Shown: piece after piece, positions 57,406-64,000 of the stretch | Position numbering within the stretch: position 1 is the first letter of the stretch | Layout of the letters: each line of letters opens with the position of its first letter | DNA from: Bacillota bacterium | Lineage (GTDB): Bacteria > Bacillota > Clostridia > Christensenellales > Aristaeellaceae | Assembly (NCBI GenBank): GCA_023392515.1 | Contig: JAEVYX010000017.1 | Coordinates: 1,344-65,343, forward strand | Direction of reading: 5' to 3' | DNA length: 64,000 nt | Made by a program: the position numbers and the translations under genes | The notes under the pieces: model-generated | Databases searched by the model: none | What the model was told of the DNA's origin: nothing | The model's input: the letters and a program-made list of their open reading frames with translations, nothing else

Positions 57406-58494
57406 ATGAAAAACTTTGGATTTGGATGCATGCGCCTGCCTATAAAGGGCGGGGAGGTGGATATTCATCAATTTTCGGAAATGGTGGATTGCTTTCTGGC
57501 GGCGGGTTTCACCTACTTTGACACCGCCCATGGCTATATACAGGGGAAAAGCGAAACTGCCCTGCGGGAATGCCTGGTTAAAAGATATCCCAGAGACCGG
57601 TATGTGCTCACGGATAAGCTGACGGTACATTTCTTCAATAATAGGGCTGATCTTCCCGGCTTATTTGCCGATCAGCTGGAGAAGACGGGTGTGGAATACT
57701 TCGACTATTACCTGATGCACGCCCTGACAAGCGATTTCTATCGGAAGTTCGTACGCTGCGGCGCTTTTGACTTTGCCAAAGAGCTTAAGGCTCAGGGTAA
57801 AATAAAGCATATCGGCATTTCATTCCATGACAAGGCGGAAGTGCTGGAACAGATCCTGTCCGAACATCCGGAGGTGGAGGTCGTGCAGATTCAGTTCAAT
57901 TATGCCGATTATGATGATCCGACGATTCAGAGCCGTGCCGTGTATGATGTGTGCGTGAGGCATAACAAACCCGTCATCATCATGGAGCCCTGCAAGGGCG
58001 GCGGCCTCATCAATCTTCCGGAGGAGGCCAAAAAGGTTTTGAAAACGCTGGGCGGCAGCCCGGCAAGTTATGCCATACGGTATGCGGCTTCCTTTCCCCA
58101 GGTGATGATGGTGCTAAGCGGCATGAGCACCTCCGAGCAGCTGGAGGAAAACGTCGGCTTTATGGCGGACTTTGCCCCTTTGACCGATACAGAAAACCAC
58201 GCGATTGATCAGGTTCGTGCCATTCTCAAAAGTCAGGACCTGATCGCCTGCACTGCCTGCCGCTACTGTACCGACGGCTGCCCCAAGAAAATCTCTATTC
58301 CTGATTTGTTTGCCTGCTATAATGACAAAAAGCAGTACAAGGATTGGAACAGCGACTTTTACTACATGTTCAGCACTACGGGCAAAGGCAAGGCTTCCGA
58401 CTGCATCCGCTGCGGAAAGTGCGAAAAGGAATGCCCGCAGCACTTGCTAATCCGCGACTTGCTAAAAGATGTGGCCGCAGCGCTGGAACGGTAA
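57406..58494 (+). CDS. Aldo/keto reductase fused to a C-terminal 2x[4Fe-4S] ferredoxin-type domain (paralogue)
   Basis: Motifs MKNFGFGCMRLP and YFDTAHGY. The C-terminal cluster motifs are CTACRYCTDGCP and CIRCGKCEKECP. Confidence 0.8.
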   Translation: MKNFGFGCMRLPIKGGEVDIHQFSEMVDCFLAAGFTYFDTAHGYIQGKSETALRECLVKRYPRDRYVLTDKLTVHFFNNRADLPGLFADQLEKTGVEYFDYYLMHALTSDFYRKFVRCGAFDFAKELKAQGKIKHIGISFHDKAEVLEQILSEHPEVEVVQIQFNYADYDDPTIQSRAVYDVCVRHNKPVIIMEPCKGGGLINLPEEAKKVLKTLGGSPASYAIRYAASFPQVMMVLSGMSTSEQLEENVGFMADFAPLTDTENHAIDQVRAILKSQDLIACTACRYCTDGCPKKISIPDLFACYNDKKQYKDWNSDFYYMFSTTGKGKASDCIRCGKCEKECPQHLLIRDLLKDVAAALER

Positions 58495-58936: not shown

Positions 58937-59314
58937 ATGACCATTGCAGAAGTGTGCAAAAGATATGGCTTGAGCGCCGATACGCTGCGTTATTATGAGC
59001 GGGTTGGGCTGCTGCCGCCTATCACGAGAACCTCGGGCGGGATAAGGGACTATTCTGAAAAAGACTGCCGCTGGGTGGAGTACATCAAGTGTATGCGCTC
59101 AGCTGGGGTTTCCGTGGAGACACTGGTAGAATACATGGCACTGTTTCAAAAAGGGCCGGAGACAATTGTCGCCCGCAAGGCACTGTTGCTGGAGCAAAGA
59201 GAACAGATCGTGGCGCGTATCAGCGAGATGAACGAAATACTGGCCAAGCTGGACTGGAAGCTGGATGGATACGAGGAAAGGATGCTCCATTATGAAGAGC
59301 AGCTAAAGCCCTAG
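58937..59314 (+). CDS. MerR-family transcriptional regulator
   Basis: The N-terminal HTH is MTIAEVCKRYGLSADTLRYYERVGLLPP, followed by a coiled-coil C-terminus. The RBS is GGAGGGA. Confidence 0.9.
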   Translation: MTIAEVCKRYGLSADTLRYYERVGLLPPITRTSGGIRDYSEKDCRWVEYIKCMRSAGVSVETLVEYMALFQKGPETIVARKALLLEQREQIVARISEMNEILAKLDWKLDGYEERMLHYEEQLKP

Positions 59315-59946: not shown

Positions 59947-60876
59947 ATGGTGCTTTCAATCTTGCAGATGGTGCTTCCGGTATTGATTACCTTTGGGCTT
60001 GGCTACCTTTGCAACCGCAAGAAAGTATTCGGCACGGAGGGTCTTGCGGGGCTAAAGGCAGTGGTGGGCAATGTGACGCTGCCCGCGGTGCTGTTTTTCG
60101 CATTTTTTACGGCAGAGTATTCTGGCAAGATCGCACTGATGTTCGCGACCGTGTTTCTTTCCTGCACGCTGGGGCTGCTTATGGGTTATGTGCTCCGGCG
60201 CCTTGTTAAGCCATATGGCAAGTTTATGCCATTTCTGGTAACAAACTTTGAGGGCGGCATGCTGGGCTATGCTCTCTTTGGCCTGCTGTACGCTGGGCAG
60301 ACGCAGATATTTGCCATGGTGGATATCGGGCAGTCCTTTTGCGCGTTCACAGTATTTCTTGCAGCGCTCAAGGCAACAGGCGGGGAGAAAGTAAACGTGA
60401 AAGCGCTGGGCAAGAACATGCTGCACAATGTGGTTTTTGTGTGCATCACGCTAGGCGCGGTATTGGGTGCGCTGGGCGTGGGCAAGTGGCTGCTGTCTTT
60501 ACCGGTTGGCGGGATCATAAGTGATGTGATTCGCTTCATCGCCGCACCCACCAGCGCGCTCATCCTTATTATCGTGGGGTATGAACTGAGTTTCCAGAAG
60601 GCGCTGCTCTCTCCGGTACTCAAGACGATCGGACTGCGCCTTGCGGTCATGTATGCTTTGCTGGCAGTGGGAGCATTCGCGGTGTTCAGCATCATCCCGT
60701 TTGAAAAGCCGCTGTTTGTGGCAATGCTGCTGGCTTACAGCATGCCCGCGCCATTCATAGTGCCCTTGTATGCGGATGTGACGGGTCACGGGGAGTATAT
60801 CTCCACCACACTTTCAGTGCAGACGTTGCTTTCCGTCGCATTGTTCATCGGCATAGCGGTGTATTCGCTGTCATGA
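59947..60876 (+). CDS. AEC (auxin efflux carrier) family membrane transporter
   Basis: The RBS is GAGGAGGAG. The protein has ~10 hydrophobic segments. The N-terminus MVLSILQMVLPVLITFGLGYL is typical of the family. Confidence 0.75.
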   Translation: MVLSILQMVLPVLITFGLGYLCNRKKVFGTEGLAGLKAVVGNVTLPAVLFFAFFTAEYSGKIALMFATVFLSCTLGLLMGYVLRRLVKPYGKFMPFLVTNFEGGMLGYALFGLLYAGQTQIFAMVDIGQSFCAFTVFLAALKATGGEKVNVKALGKNMLHNVVFVCITLGAVLGALGVGKWLLSLPVGGIISDVIRFIAAPTSALILIIVGYELSFQKALLSPVLKTIGLRLAVMYALLAVGAFAVFSIIPFEKPLFVAMLLAYSMPAPFIVPLYADVTGHGEYISTTLSVQTLLSVALFIGIAVYSLS

Positions 60877-60978: not shown

Positions 60979-60988
60979 GTGATATAAT
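60979..60988 (+). promoter_or_regulatory. Extended -10 promoter element upstream of the flavodiiron gene
   Basis: TGATATAAT (TG at 60980-81, TATAAT at 60983-88). Confidence 0.45.
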
Positions 60989-61041
60989 GGATTTATTCAA
61001 ATGTAGGAAAATAATGGGCCGATGCTTCGTTGTATCATGAA

Positions 61042-61060
61042 ATCCGCAAATATTGCGGAT
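61042..61060. promoter_or_regulatory. Perfect 8-bp-arm inverted repeat between promoter and RBS (candidate operator)
   Basis: ATCCGCAA-ata-TTGCGGAT lies 29 nt upstream of ATG 61089. Confidence 0.4.
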
Positions 61061-61088
61061 GCAAAACATTACAAAGGAGGATCTTTTT

Positions 61089-62624
61089 ATGGACGGGAAT
61101 ATGAACAGGCGGAAGTTTATCAAGACGATGGCTGGCGGCGCCGTAGGCGCTGCCGGACTGAGCGTGATGGGCGGATTGCCCAGGGCCTTGGCTTCTACAG
61201 CAGATGCGGCCAAGCCCCAGGAGCCGGTGCTGCAGTATGAAGGCAAGCAGAAGTTTGCTGGTGTCCATAATGTTCGCAAAATCAGCGAAGACCTAGTCTA
61301 TTTGGGTGCAAGCGACAGCCGTCTTGCATTGTTTGAAAACGTGTATCCCATCCCGCGCGGGGTGAGTTACAATGCCTACCTGTTGCTGGATGAGAAGACC
61401 GTTCTTTTTGATACTGTAGACCGGTCGGTCTCCGGCCAGTTTTTTGAGAACCTGATATATGCGCTCAATGGCCGTTCCCTTGACTACCTGGTCATCAACC
61501 ACATGGAGCCTGACCACTGCTCCTCAATTGCTGAGGTGCTGGCCCGCTGGCCCGCTGTACAGCTCATTTGTTCAGTGGCTGCTGAACCGTTGATCCGGCA
61601 GTTTTTCGGTTTTGAGTTAAGCGATCATGGCCGCACTGTGCAGGAGGGCGATCAGTTGGTCACCGGCCGGCATACTCTGGCCTTTGTAATGGCGCCCATG
61701 GTGCATTGGCCAGAAACCATGATGACCTATGACGCTACAGACAAGGTGCTCTTCTCTGCTGATGCCTTTGGCTCCTTTGGTGCGCTTAACGGTAACCTTT
61801 TCGCCGATGAACTGAACTTCCAGAGCGAATGGCTTCCCGATGCCAGGCGCTACTACACCAACATTGTGGGAAAATACGGTCCTCAGGTGCAGAATGTATT
61901 GGAAAAAGCGGCTACCATCGAAATCCAGACCATCTGCCCCCTGCATGGTCCCGTCTGGCGCAAGGATCTTAGTTGGTTTATAGACAAGTATGTCAAGTGG
62001 AGCAGCTACACCCCCGAAGAGGAAGCCGTGATGATTGTATACGGCTCCATTTATGGCGGTACGGAAAACGCTGCCAAAGTGCTTGCCTCCCACCTGTCCA
62101 TAGGCGGAATCCCCAATGTGGCGGTATATGATGTATCCAAGACCCATGTTTCCGAGCTCATAGCCGAGGCTTTCCGCTGCAGCCATCTGGTGTTCGCTTC
62201 CATCACCTACAACATGGATATCTTTACACCAATGAAAAACCTGCTGACCGACCTGGAGGTGCACAACTTGCAGCAGCGGCGTTTTGCCTTGATTGAAAAC
62301 GGCAGTTGGTCGCCGGTTTCCGGGGGCAAGATGCAGGAGGCGCTCGCACGGATGAAGGGCATGGAGCAGGTTGGCGGCACTGTCACTATCCAGTCTACCA
62401 CCAACGAAACAAGTTTCAAGCAGCTTGAAGACCTGGGTAACAGCGTCCTAGCTGACTTTGGCAAAACAGCACCAGCTGCCGCAGCGGAGCAAGCCCAGCC
62501 TGCCCAAAAGACCACTTGGCGCTGCAGCGTCTGCGGTTATGTGGTCGAGGCTGAGGAACTGCCCGCGGACTATGTATGCCCTGTCTGTGGGGTGGGGCCC
62601 GATAAGTTCGTAAAAGTGGAATAA
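61089..62624 (+). CDS. Flavodiiron protein (MBL-like diiron domain + flavodoxin domain) with C-terminal rubredoxin and an N-terminal twin-arginine signal peptide
   Basis: ATG 61089 lies 9 nt after AAAGGAGG. The Tat-type leader is MDGNMNRRKFIKTMAGGAVGAAGLSVMGGLPRALA|ST. The diiron motif is INHMEPDH. The flavodoxin-like segment is VMIVYGSIYGGTENAAK. The rubredoxin motif is WRCSVCGYVVE...YVCPVCGVGPDKF. Confidence 0.8.
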   Translation: MDGNMNRRKFIKTMAGGAVGAAGLSVMGGLPRALASTADAAKPQEPVLQYEGKQKFAGVHNVRKISEDLVYLGASDSRLALFENVYPIPRGVSYNAYLLLDEKTVLFDTVDRSVSGQFFENLIYALNGRSLDYLVINHMEPDHCSSIAEVLARWPAVQLICSVAAEPLIRQFFGFELSDHGRTVQEGDQLVTGRHTLAFVMAPMVHWPETMMTYDATDKVLFSADAFGSFGALNGNLFADELNFQSEWLPDARRYYTNIVGKYGPQVQNVLEKAATIEIQTICPLHGPVWRKDLSWFIDKYVKWSSYTPEEEAVMIVYGSIYGGTENAAKVLASHLSIGGIPNVAVYDVSKTHVSELIAEAFRCSHLVFASITYNMDIFTPMKNLLTDLEVHNLQQRRFALIENGSWSPVSGGKMQEALARMKGMEQVGGTVTIQSTTNETSFKQLEDLGNSVLADFGKTAPAAAAEQAQPAQKTTWRCSVCGYVVEAEELPADYVCPVCGVGPDKFVKVE

Positions 62625-62686
62625 GGGAAGGCGGCATAAAAATTCCGCCCCCAAGATTTATTATTGCCCGGTGTGTTTGCCAGGCG

Positions 62687-62729
62687 CAGCGTGTCGAAAA
62701 GGTGACTGTGCCTCTTTTTCGACACGCTG
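62687..62729. terminator. Hairpin between convergent genes
   Basis: CAGCGTGTCGAAAA-15 nt-TTTTCGACACGCTG (14-bp arms). Confidence 0.6.
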
Positions 62730-62739
62730 CCTTGATGAA

Positions 62740-62961
62740 TCAGTTCATCAATTGTTTTGAATCACGGCCAATGCAGTGAGTAATAAACTGCAGATAACAT
62801 GGGAGCTTCTGAAAATCTTCGCGATCGTGGACCAGAGAAAGTATGTTGCCAGTTAATCCGTCATTTGCCCCAGAAATAGCCGAAACCCTATATTCCTCAA
62901 CGCTAGCAGCGGTTTGTCCAATCAAAGGAGTAATTTCAGCGGCCTTAGCATGACCGGACAT
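62740..62961 (-). CDS. Small hypothetical protein (73 aa)
   Basis: Its ATG overlaps the stop of the upstream gene (TAATG), suggesting translational coupling. No recognisable motif. Confidence 0.3.
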   Translation of the reverse strand: MSGHAKAAEITPLIGQTAASVEEYRVSAISGANDGLTGNILSLVHDREDFQKLPCYLQFITHCIGRDSKQLMN

Positions 62962-64000
62962 TACTCACTTTCCTGATAATCGTGCAAATAATCCAGACGA
63001 GTTATAAAAGGAGTGTCAGGAAAGCCTGGCTCTTCCAATGTGGCTCCGTAAAGAAGGACCTCGTTCTCCTGTGCTTTTGCCATGCCCATAAGTTCCAATA
63101 CGCCTCCGCCAATATATGGAACCCCTTCGGTTTTCATGGCATTTCCCGATTCATCCAGGAATAGCAGCCATCCATTACCCAGGTTAGGGCAGTTTTCAAG
63201 GTCTAGCCCACGGCTGCCAACGAGGAAGCCATTCGTCATGGGCACAATATAATCTGCTGATAGGTGTTTTTCCAGGGCATGTTCCCATAACAACCTGCCA
63301 TCCATTGTCATGCAGAAAATAAAACCGGAACGGCTTTCCGGGAATCCCATCTCCTCATCAAATGAAACTCCGGCATAGCAGCCGGATATTATTCCCCCAG
63401 ACGTTACACACACATCATGAATGAAGGCTTGCTGATAACTCCGGGCTTCCATATTCCAGAGCACTTGACCATCCGGGCCTATGTGATGAATGAGGCCTAC
63501 ATAGGATCCATCCTCCGCAAATCCGCTCCCGATGATAACCAATGAATCAGCGGCGGCCGCCCCCTTGTGAAAAGTCATGTCAGAATATGCCGGGTTAGAG
63601 TATATAAGCGACCATAGGTTTTTGCCTGCTTTGTCCAAGCGTGTCAGCGTGGCTTGCGGTGCTTCTTCTTCATGTGGGCCTGCGGTCTGATCATAAGAAT
63701 TCCCAATGAGATAATATCCGTCTTCATATGGTATCATCCATTCCGTATAAGGCGAAAGGAATTGAGTTTGTGTGATTGTGCCTTCACTGCTGATGAAGGC
63801 CAGCAAGGTTTCGTCTGAACCTGTTTGATTGCCCAAATAATCATGGGTCGCATTGCGCTTAATCAGAGCAGAAAAGCCGCCGTCACCCAACCCTTTGGCA
63901 CAACGGAAAGAACCATTGCCTTCCTCAGCCAGCACCCAGCGCACGCTGCCGTCTGACCGAAGATTTGCCATCCAACCGTTATCTTCGTACTCAGATGCGC
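62961..64000 (-). CDS. Repeat-containing (beta-propeller-like) hypothetical protein, 5'-truncated by the window edge
   Basis: The frame stays open upstream of the listed Met (…ASEYEDNGW-MANLRSDGSVRW…). The recurring DG..(L/R)W pattern (SDGSVRWV, KAGKNLWS, PDGQVLWN, MDGRLLWE) resembles PQQ/BamB-like propeller blades. Confidence 0.5.
   Translation of the reverse strand, partial: ASEYEDNGWMANLRSDGSVRWVLAEEGNGSFRCAKGLGDGGFSALIKRNATHDYLGNQTGSDETLLAFISSEGTITQTQFLSPYTEWMIPYEDGYYLIGNSYDQTAGPHEEEAPQATLTRLDKAGKNLWSLIYSNPAYSDMTFHKGAAAADSLVIIGSGFAEDGSYVGLIHHIGPDGQVLWNMEARSYQQAFIHDVCVTSGGIISGCYAGVSFDEEMGFPESRSGFIFCMTMDGRLLWEHALEKHLSADYIVPMTNGFLVGSRGLDLENCPNLGNGWLLFLDESGNAMKTEGVPYIGGGVLELMGMAKAQENEVLLYGATLEEPGFPDTPFITRLDYLHDYQESE

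Follow-up and report, generated by a model that had tools for sequence, protein, structure and literature searches.

Flavodiiron proteins (FDPs) are the main O2 and NO scavengers of anaerobes. They have been described as soluble cytoplasmic enzymes (PMC6033852), in agreement with what the initial annotation of the present locus had stated, and Class D of the Folgosa and Teixeira classification, as far as it is cited in PMC6033852, combines the FDP core with a short-spaced Cys4 domain and lacks an NAD(P)H module. Here we analyse a window of 64,000 nucleotides from a gut Clostridia bacterium (Bacillota) of the family Aristaeellaceae (contig JAEVYX010000017.1, positions 1,344 to 65,343), in which one gene encodes an FDP with a C-terminal rubredoxin-like domain and a predicted twin-arginine (Tat) signal peptide at its N-terminus. 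The conserved Tat signal and the linker that follows it set the clade of this protein apart from every described FDP; the full-text literature searched contained no description of an exported FDP, with prior mention in paywalled literature being possible. We favour the reading that the protein is an exported, cleaved, extracytosolic Class D FDP, to which we assign a probability of about 0.7. An exported FDP had already been proposed in the initial annotation, and its Tat leader, the Tat genes, the conservation of the leader and the cytoplasmic nature of known FDPs have been borne out, while the dedicated regulation that it added has not.

Domain architecture and conservation of the leader

According to Pfam, the 511-residue protein consists of an FDP-type metallo-beta-lactamase domain (residues 93-287), a flavodoxin domain (316-442, PF00258) and a rubrerythrin-type rubredoxin domain (477-507); no domain beyond these, and no NAD(P)H-binding module, was found. 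The seven diiron ligands, which include the stretch HMEPDH at residues 138-143, align with H79/E81/D83/H84/H147/D166/H227 of the Escherichia coli flavorubredoxin and are invariant in an alignment of 96 clade members that diverge to 60% identity. The C-terminal domain is matched by PF21349 (RUBY_RBDX, 1.5e-11) and is present in 96/96 members with its four cysteines invariant, and PF00301 (Rubredoxin) reaches 20.3 bits, under its cut-off of 23 bits. An AlphaFold2 model has a mean pLDDT of 82.7, with low confidence and a helix at residues 7-19 in the leader region, and its top Foldseek matches are all FDPs (Desulfovibrio gigas ROO, E. coli flavorubredoxin and Moorella FprA) at TM values of 0.82-0.85, normalised to the target. 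Judged by domain content and predicted fold, the protein belongs to the FDP family and has the layout of Class D. A Class B flavorubredoxin was ruled out, as the scores against the NCBIfam NorV equivalog models are far under their cut-offs (219.5 versus 635 bits for NF008887 and 201.1 versus 711 bits for NF003954) and there is no canonical rubredoxin domain. As a side observation, an NCBIfam ‘exception’ model for the tetracycline-resistance oxidoreductase Tet(37) matches all 96 clade members (E of about 1e-18 to 1e-21), in this protein at 61848-62084 (residues 254-332) with 66 bits, far below the cut-off of 225 bits; Tet(37) evidently resembles an FDP fragment.

The leader reads MDGNMNRRKFIKTMAGGAVGAAGLSVMGGLPRALA and is followed by S36. 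The motif N-R-R-K-F-I-K (residues 6-12) meets the Tat consensus S/T-R-R-x-F-L-K, and the hydrophobic region (h-region, residues 13-31) is rich in alanine and glycine and leads to a predicted signal-peptidase site at A33-L34-A35|S36, just as had been described from the single sequence. The survey of homologues that the initial annotation had called for gave a clear answer: [STND]-R-R-x-F-[LI]-K is kept near residue 7 in 113 of the 120 nearest homologues, drawn from a collection of 5.8 billion proteins, and neither R7 nor F10 varies in the 96-sequence alignment, in which conservation of R8 and K12 reaches at least 90%. The Tat-signal models PF10518 and TIGR01409 each match 88 of these 96 members at E ≤ 0.1 (best E 5.9e-7 and 4.2e-6, respectively), PF10518 reaches 19.7-29.3 bits in individual Pfam scans of six other clade proteins, and genome-wide the FDP leader is the top match of both models. 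Across the clade, the uncharged stretch of the h- and c-regions averages 20.5 residues with a hydropathy of 1.34, 38% alanine and 19% glycine, and a small-x-small site, mostly with glutamate after it, occurs in 112 of the 113 leaders. This pattern of conservation identifies the leader, at the level of sequence, as a genuine conserved signal of the Tat type, far beyond chance. A leader-plus-linker profile run against 1.84 billion representative sequences retrieved, besides FDP fragments, the N-termini of FAD_binding_2, FMN_bind and OYE reductases, which carry Tat signals themselves; this search gave no census of the clade, full-length members collapsing into few 50% clusters.

In a maximum-likelihood tree of the catalytic core, all leader-bearing proteins form one clade with a Shimodaira-Hasegawa (SH)-like support of 0.999, and its sister groups are leaderless, have about 400 residues and are without rubredoxin. 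What had been noted as a single odd gene thus carries a real leader and is part of a monophyletic, metagenome-wide clade, with relatives named Oscillospiraceae, Candidatus Ventricola, Lachnospiraceae, Blautia and Synergistaceae. None of the clade members has an NAD(P)H-binding module, while many close leaderless relatives do (forms of about 610 residues). The absence of this module together with the rubredoxin domain in every member fits a location free of NAD(P)H, in which electrons would come from a partner. A second FDP is encoded in the same genome, outside the window (G000:C2:98163-99476 (+), where G000 is the source genome assembly and C numbers are its contigs); it is leaderless, has 437 residues from the first ATG and is 46% identical in the core, so that the bacterium would possess one enzyme in the cytoplasm and another that is predicted to be exported.

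Six ‘leaderless’ sequences are nested inside the leader clade, two of which we examined. P0064, a record of 451 residues at NCBI, is a start miscall at an internal GTG, as MDKEINRRTFLKG... lies in frame upstream with a ribosome-binding site (RBS; L091:1345-1500). In P0100 the leader is truly lost and the linker is kept: P0100/P0101 (459 residues, 42 cluster members; L092:1501-2880) have the linker FEGKRKFAG and a divergent C-terminal Cys4 domain, and presumably represent a natural ‘cytoplasmic revertant’ that would work in the cytoplasm. At NCBI the proteins of the clade go under the name ‘MBL fold metallo-hydrolase’, and the length of several of the records is 450-451 residues; because of this name, and because some start calls remove the leader, the combination of Tat signal and FDP is hidden in current annotation.

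Tat genes and possible electron supply

The source assembly (3.45 Mb, 94% complete) carries the Tat genes for which the initial annotation had suggested a check, in the order tatA-tatA-tatC (G000:C56:19621-20918 (-); TatC 223 bits, TatA 60 and 37 bits). TatC is infrequent in this lineage: among sampled genomes it is present in 6 of 151 (4%) from the order and 50 of 150 (33%) from the family. The leader-bearing FDP itself is scarcer and was found in 3 of 150 sampled family genomes and in none of 150 other genomes of the order or 398 other genomes of the class, samples that only bound its prevalence. Among nine genomes with the leader-bearing FDP, seven have TatC, namely all three family carriers and four of six other carriers reached through their loci. 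Against the family background of 33% this corresponds to an estimated binomial p of about 0.008, and the link between leader-bearing FDP and TatC is therefore statistically significant.

Next to the tat genes lie genes for moeA-like, moaC, moaA, mogA/moaB-like and molybdate-binding proteins (neighbours to 26900), and no Tat-signal molybdoenzyme was found in the 94%-complete assembly. The only other convincing candidate for a Tat substrate in the assembly, located outside the window, is a C_GCAxxG_C_C ‘putative redox-active protein’ with the Tat-like leader TRREFLV (G000:C55:9743-10441 (-)), about 400 bp upstream of which the contig ends; regex scans for further substrates were noisy.

We compared the neighbourhood of the FDP gene in the window with those in eight related loci. 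The nine contexts all differ and have nothing in common; a linked electron donor, chaperone or regulator is present in none of them, and a conserved operon partner or dedicated chaperone was rejected on these grounds. The genome-wide components of extracellular electron transfer that the initial annotation had proposed to look for are present: three flavin transferases of the ApbE type, one protein in which the FMN_bind domain occurs nine times, and exported reductases that combine FMN_bind and FAD domains. The nine FMN_bind domains are arranged in tandem in a protein of 1062 residues with an N-terminal membrane segment (L104:1576-4764 (-), equivalent to G000:C89:36576-39764), whose gene adjoins an ApbE gene (L104:4845-5984 (-)), and which is a candidate for a ‘multi-flavinylated’ electron wire. 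At least two FMN_bind + FAD_binding_2 reductases of the fumarate-reductase-like type have signal peptides (L105:1523-3418 (+) and L105:5151-6971 (+), on G000:C142). A transcription regulator stands beside each of these two reductase genes. On the strand of the nine-FMN_bind gene, genes for a membrane protein with a NusG_II domain and for a VanW/PG-binding protein follow after another 1.7 and 2.7 kb.

Flavin potentials lie well below that of rubredoxin. Based on this redox plausibility and on co-residence in one genome, the extracytosolic flavin system could be the source of electrons for the FDP. A flavinylation-based toolkit for extracytosolic electron transfer that includes ‘multi-flavinylated proteins’ has been described, without mention of oxygen, diiron or rubredoxin proteins (PMC8238504), and menadiol achieves a partial reduction of the rubredoxin site in a Clostridial FDP (PMC6033852).

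Predicted location of the enzyme

Loading of the iron sites and of non-covalent FMN has to take place in the cytoplasm, which leaves Tat as the only workable export route. According to the reading that we favour, the FDP would fold and take up iron and FMN in the cytoplasm, TatA/TatC would carry the folded protein across the membrane by means of its N-terminal twin-arginine signal peptide, and signal peptidase I would probably cut at A35|S36. Outside the membrane of the monoderm Clostridia cell, the enzyme would reduce O2 to water or, less likely, NO to N2O, its rubredoxin domain receiving electrons from a donor outside the cytosol. For this donor, the most plausible candidate would be the flavin-based extracytosolic electron-transfer machinery encoded in the genome, or else free reduced flavins or quinols. 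That the FDP is really exported, be it cleaved and released or anchored, appears highly probable from the conserved leader, and the leader-bearing clade as a whole probably works outside the cell membrane. We are far less confident about the donor and the physiological role proposed here.

The preference for O2 over NO is indirect. Two second-sphere residues point in different directions: D111 is equivalent to D52 of the NO-selective E. coli enzyme, and the invariant Y322 to Y271 of the O2-selective Entamoeba enzyme. These positions do not set selectivity in the E. coli enzyme, the selectivity determinants of FDPs are not known, and the E. coli FDP is the only clearly NO-selective one so far (PMC13133992). 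A substrate call from second-sphere residues was consequently rejected as uninformative, and reduction of O2 seems more likely than that of NO because the E. coli protein stands alone in its clear selectivity.

Several observations weigh against an exported enzyme of this kind. All characterised FDPs are cytoplasmic (PMC6033852), the second-sphere residues are a mixture of the two types, and none of the nine neighbourhoods contains a linked gene for an electron donor. TatC was not seen in two of the nine carrier genomes, both of which are metagenome-assembled genomes of unstated completeness with the gene on a short contig. Moreover, the leader of this very protein scores under the cut-offs of the hidden Markov models (HMMs) for Tat signals, with 15.7 versus 22.7 bits for PF10518 (TAT_signal, residues 4-22) and 13.2-15.4 versus 16.7 bits for TIGR01409, and taken alone it is only suggestive. 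We accept it as a Tat leader because the comparative evidence, and not its own scores, decides the matter.

Could the leader be a membrane anchor instead? An uncleaved, Rieske-like Tat signal anchor would hold the enzyme on the outer face of the membrane, where electrons would come from a membrane complex or quinol. Such a membrane-proximal site would ease electron supply, a soluble donor gene is linked in none of the neighbourhoods compared, and the Rieske Tat-signal model PF10399 matches 32 of the 96 members (the PetC anchor model matches 6). On the other hand, an h-region as weakly hydrophobic and as rich in alanine and glycine as that of the clade (mean 1.34) would make a poor anchor, the small-x-small motif and the acidic residue after it are conserved (112/113), and a conserved linker of 20-30 residues follows the cleavage site. 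We regard an anchored enzyme as unlikely.

It is less probable still that the leader is translated and the enzyme nevertheless stays in the cytoplasm, its signal having decayed or been re-purposed for peripheral membrane association or regulated turnover; the enzyme would then serve in the ordinary Class D function with a cytoplasmic NADH:rubredoxin oxidoreductase. After decay of the signal, proteins that have diverged to 60% identity would not still share RR-x-F without exception, together with an h-region of the Tat type and a motif for cleavage; the association with TatC is significant as well. These findings stand against the scores of this leader under the curated HMM cut-offs, the two of nine carrier genomes without detectable TatC, and the existence of P0100 as a natural derivative that has no leader and is presumably cytoplasmic.

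A start-codon artefact, in which the true start is downstream and the ‘leader’ is untranslated, is very improbable: NCBI does start several relatives at about residue 58 (the records of 450-451 residues), but the window has no usable downstream start, the only strong RBS sits before M1, 113 of 120 homologues share the leader in their protein sequence, and even the ‘short’ P0064 record has a full leader with RBS in frame upstream. The start that NCBI chose for some relatives is absent from the window sequence, as V59 is encoded by GTC. The sole candidate for a downstream start is an in-frame GTG (V47) behind AGGAG with a spacer of only 3 nt, so that the claim of the initial annotation that no alternative start exists near the core was nearly right. 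Its assignment of start codon and RBS holds, with a spacer of 8 nt in place of the 9 counted earlier. In every related locus compared, a GGAGG site equivalent to this RBS lies before the start codon of the leader, and a longer frame from TTG 61053 has neither an RBS nor support from homologues.

If the favoured reading of an exported, cleaved FDP is true, the clade would move FDP chemistry to the cell surface and would shield strict gut anaerobes by consuming oxygen outside their membrane; it would also add a new electron acceptor module to extracellular electron transfer by flavins. Some gut Clostridia have long been observed to reduce O2 extracellularly, and the exported FDP would be an enzyme candidate for this activity. 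A more far-reaching proposal, which we consider tentative and rather doubtful, would place the exported FDP as terminal oxidase at the end of an extracytosolic electron-transport chain based on flavins. Electrons would pass from cytoplasmic NADH or ferredoxin through a membrane complex to the multi-flavinylated wire or free flavins, and from there via rubredoxin, FMN and the diiron site to O2. Were this so, such a chain would let haem-free strict gut anaerobes consume O2 outside the cell and protect their cytoplasm, and might permit a cytochrome-independent ‘nanaerobic’ respiration.

Flanking elements and comparison with described systems

The features of the gene and its flanks are collected in Table 1. 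The FDP gene is monocistronic and has its own extended -10 promoter-like element, which a consensus promoter scan left unscored because of a weak -35; TGnTATAAT-like elements are also found upstream of the gene in loci L004, L005, L085 and L091.

Table 1. Positions of features in and around the FDP gene, counted from the first nucleotide of the window.
Feature	Position	Strand	Remarks
Putative extended -10 promoter element	60980..60988	+	TGaTATAAT; read from the sequence
Perfect palindrome/hairpin with 8-bp arms in the 5' untranslated region	61042..61060	+	ATCCGCAA-ATA-TTGCGGAT
RBS	61073..61080	+	AAAGGAGG; 8-nt spacer to ATG 61089
Coding sequence of the 511-residue Tat-signal flavodiiron-rubredoxin protein	61089..62624	+	stop codon included (62622-62624)
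Predicted Tat signal peptide, residues 1-35	61089..61193	+	N6-R7-R8-K9-F10-I11-K12 at nt 61104-61124
Linker/mature N-terminus, residues 36-62 (27 residues)	61194..61274	+	ends in clade-specific [FY]-[ED]-G-K-x-K-F-[AST]-G
Metallo-beta-lactamase-like diiron domain	61275..62003	+	ligands H138-x-E140-x-D142-H143 (nt 61500-61517), H206, D225, H286
Flavodoxin-like FMN domain, residues 311-456	62019..62456	+	PF00258; AlphaFold2 pLDDT > 90
C-terminal short-spaced rubredoxin-like domain	62514..62621	+	C479-x2-C482-x14-C497-x2-C500
Perfect inverted repeat with 15-bp arms between convergent genes	62686..62730	.	likely bidirectional terminator

The palindrome is indeed perfect, as had been claimed; chance alone would give an estimated 0.03 or so palindromes of this kind (8 bp) in a stretch of 200 bp. 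Neither L084, the relative with 86% identity, nor any of the 10 other related loci compared has this palindrome, and the 5' untranslated region folds no better than shuffled sequence (z = -1.1). A conserved operator was rejected for these reasons, and we do not accept the ‘dedicated regulation’ that had been read into the repeat, since the palindrome is unconserved and the fold of the region unremarkable. In the minimum-free-energy fold, the segment GAUGCUUCGUUGUAU is paired with the RBS region (61021-61035 and 61068-61083), and GCTTCGTTGTAT also occurs upstream of the gene in L084, the closest relative; as the overall fold is not significant, occlusion of the RBS by GAUGCUUCGUUGUAU is at most a weak hint from the model.

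Directly upstream of the FDP gene lies a Mem_trans transporter of the auxin-efflux-carrier type (59947-60876), and further upstream an aldo/keto reductase with a fused 4Fe-4S dicluster domain at its C-terminus (57406-58494 (+)) is followed downstream by a MerR-family regulator (58937-59314 (+)). Convergent with the FDP gene is an open reading frame of 336 residues (62961-63971 (-)) with no Pfam match at E ≤ 0.01.

The closest counterparts in layout are the Class D FDPs, in which the order of modules (metallo-beta-lactamase-like diiron domain, flavodoxin, short Cys4 rubredoxin), the ligands and the fold are the same as in this protein. They are described as cytoplasmic and presumed to be fed by NADH:rubredoxin oxidoreductase, whereas the present clade adds a conserved Tat signal and a linker of 20-30 residues. 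Among solved structures the best sequence match is E. coli NorV, a Class B NO reductase (E = 9e-49, 27% identity), which shares the FDP core with a C-terminal rubredoxin and has D52 at the position of D111. NorV differs in its canonical long-spaced rubredoxin, in the absence of a signal peptide, in its cognate reductase NorW, and in having a serine at position 262, where this protein has a tyrosine.

The Class A enzymes D. gigas ROO (1e5d) and Moorella FprA (1ycf), the top structural matches at TM 0.82-0.85, also receive their electrons from rubredoxin, but from a separate cytoplasmic one, and they have no export signal. Outside the FDP family, the nearest matches to the leader are the Tat- or Sec-exported flavin reductases, ApbE-flavinylated and fumarate- or urocanate-reductase-like (PMC8238504). 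Like the proposed exported FDP, these are extracytosolic terminal reductases, and they are encoded in the same genome together with the flavinylation machinery; they differ from it in an unrelated catalytic fold and in a covalent FMN that is installed outside the cell.

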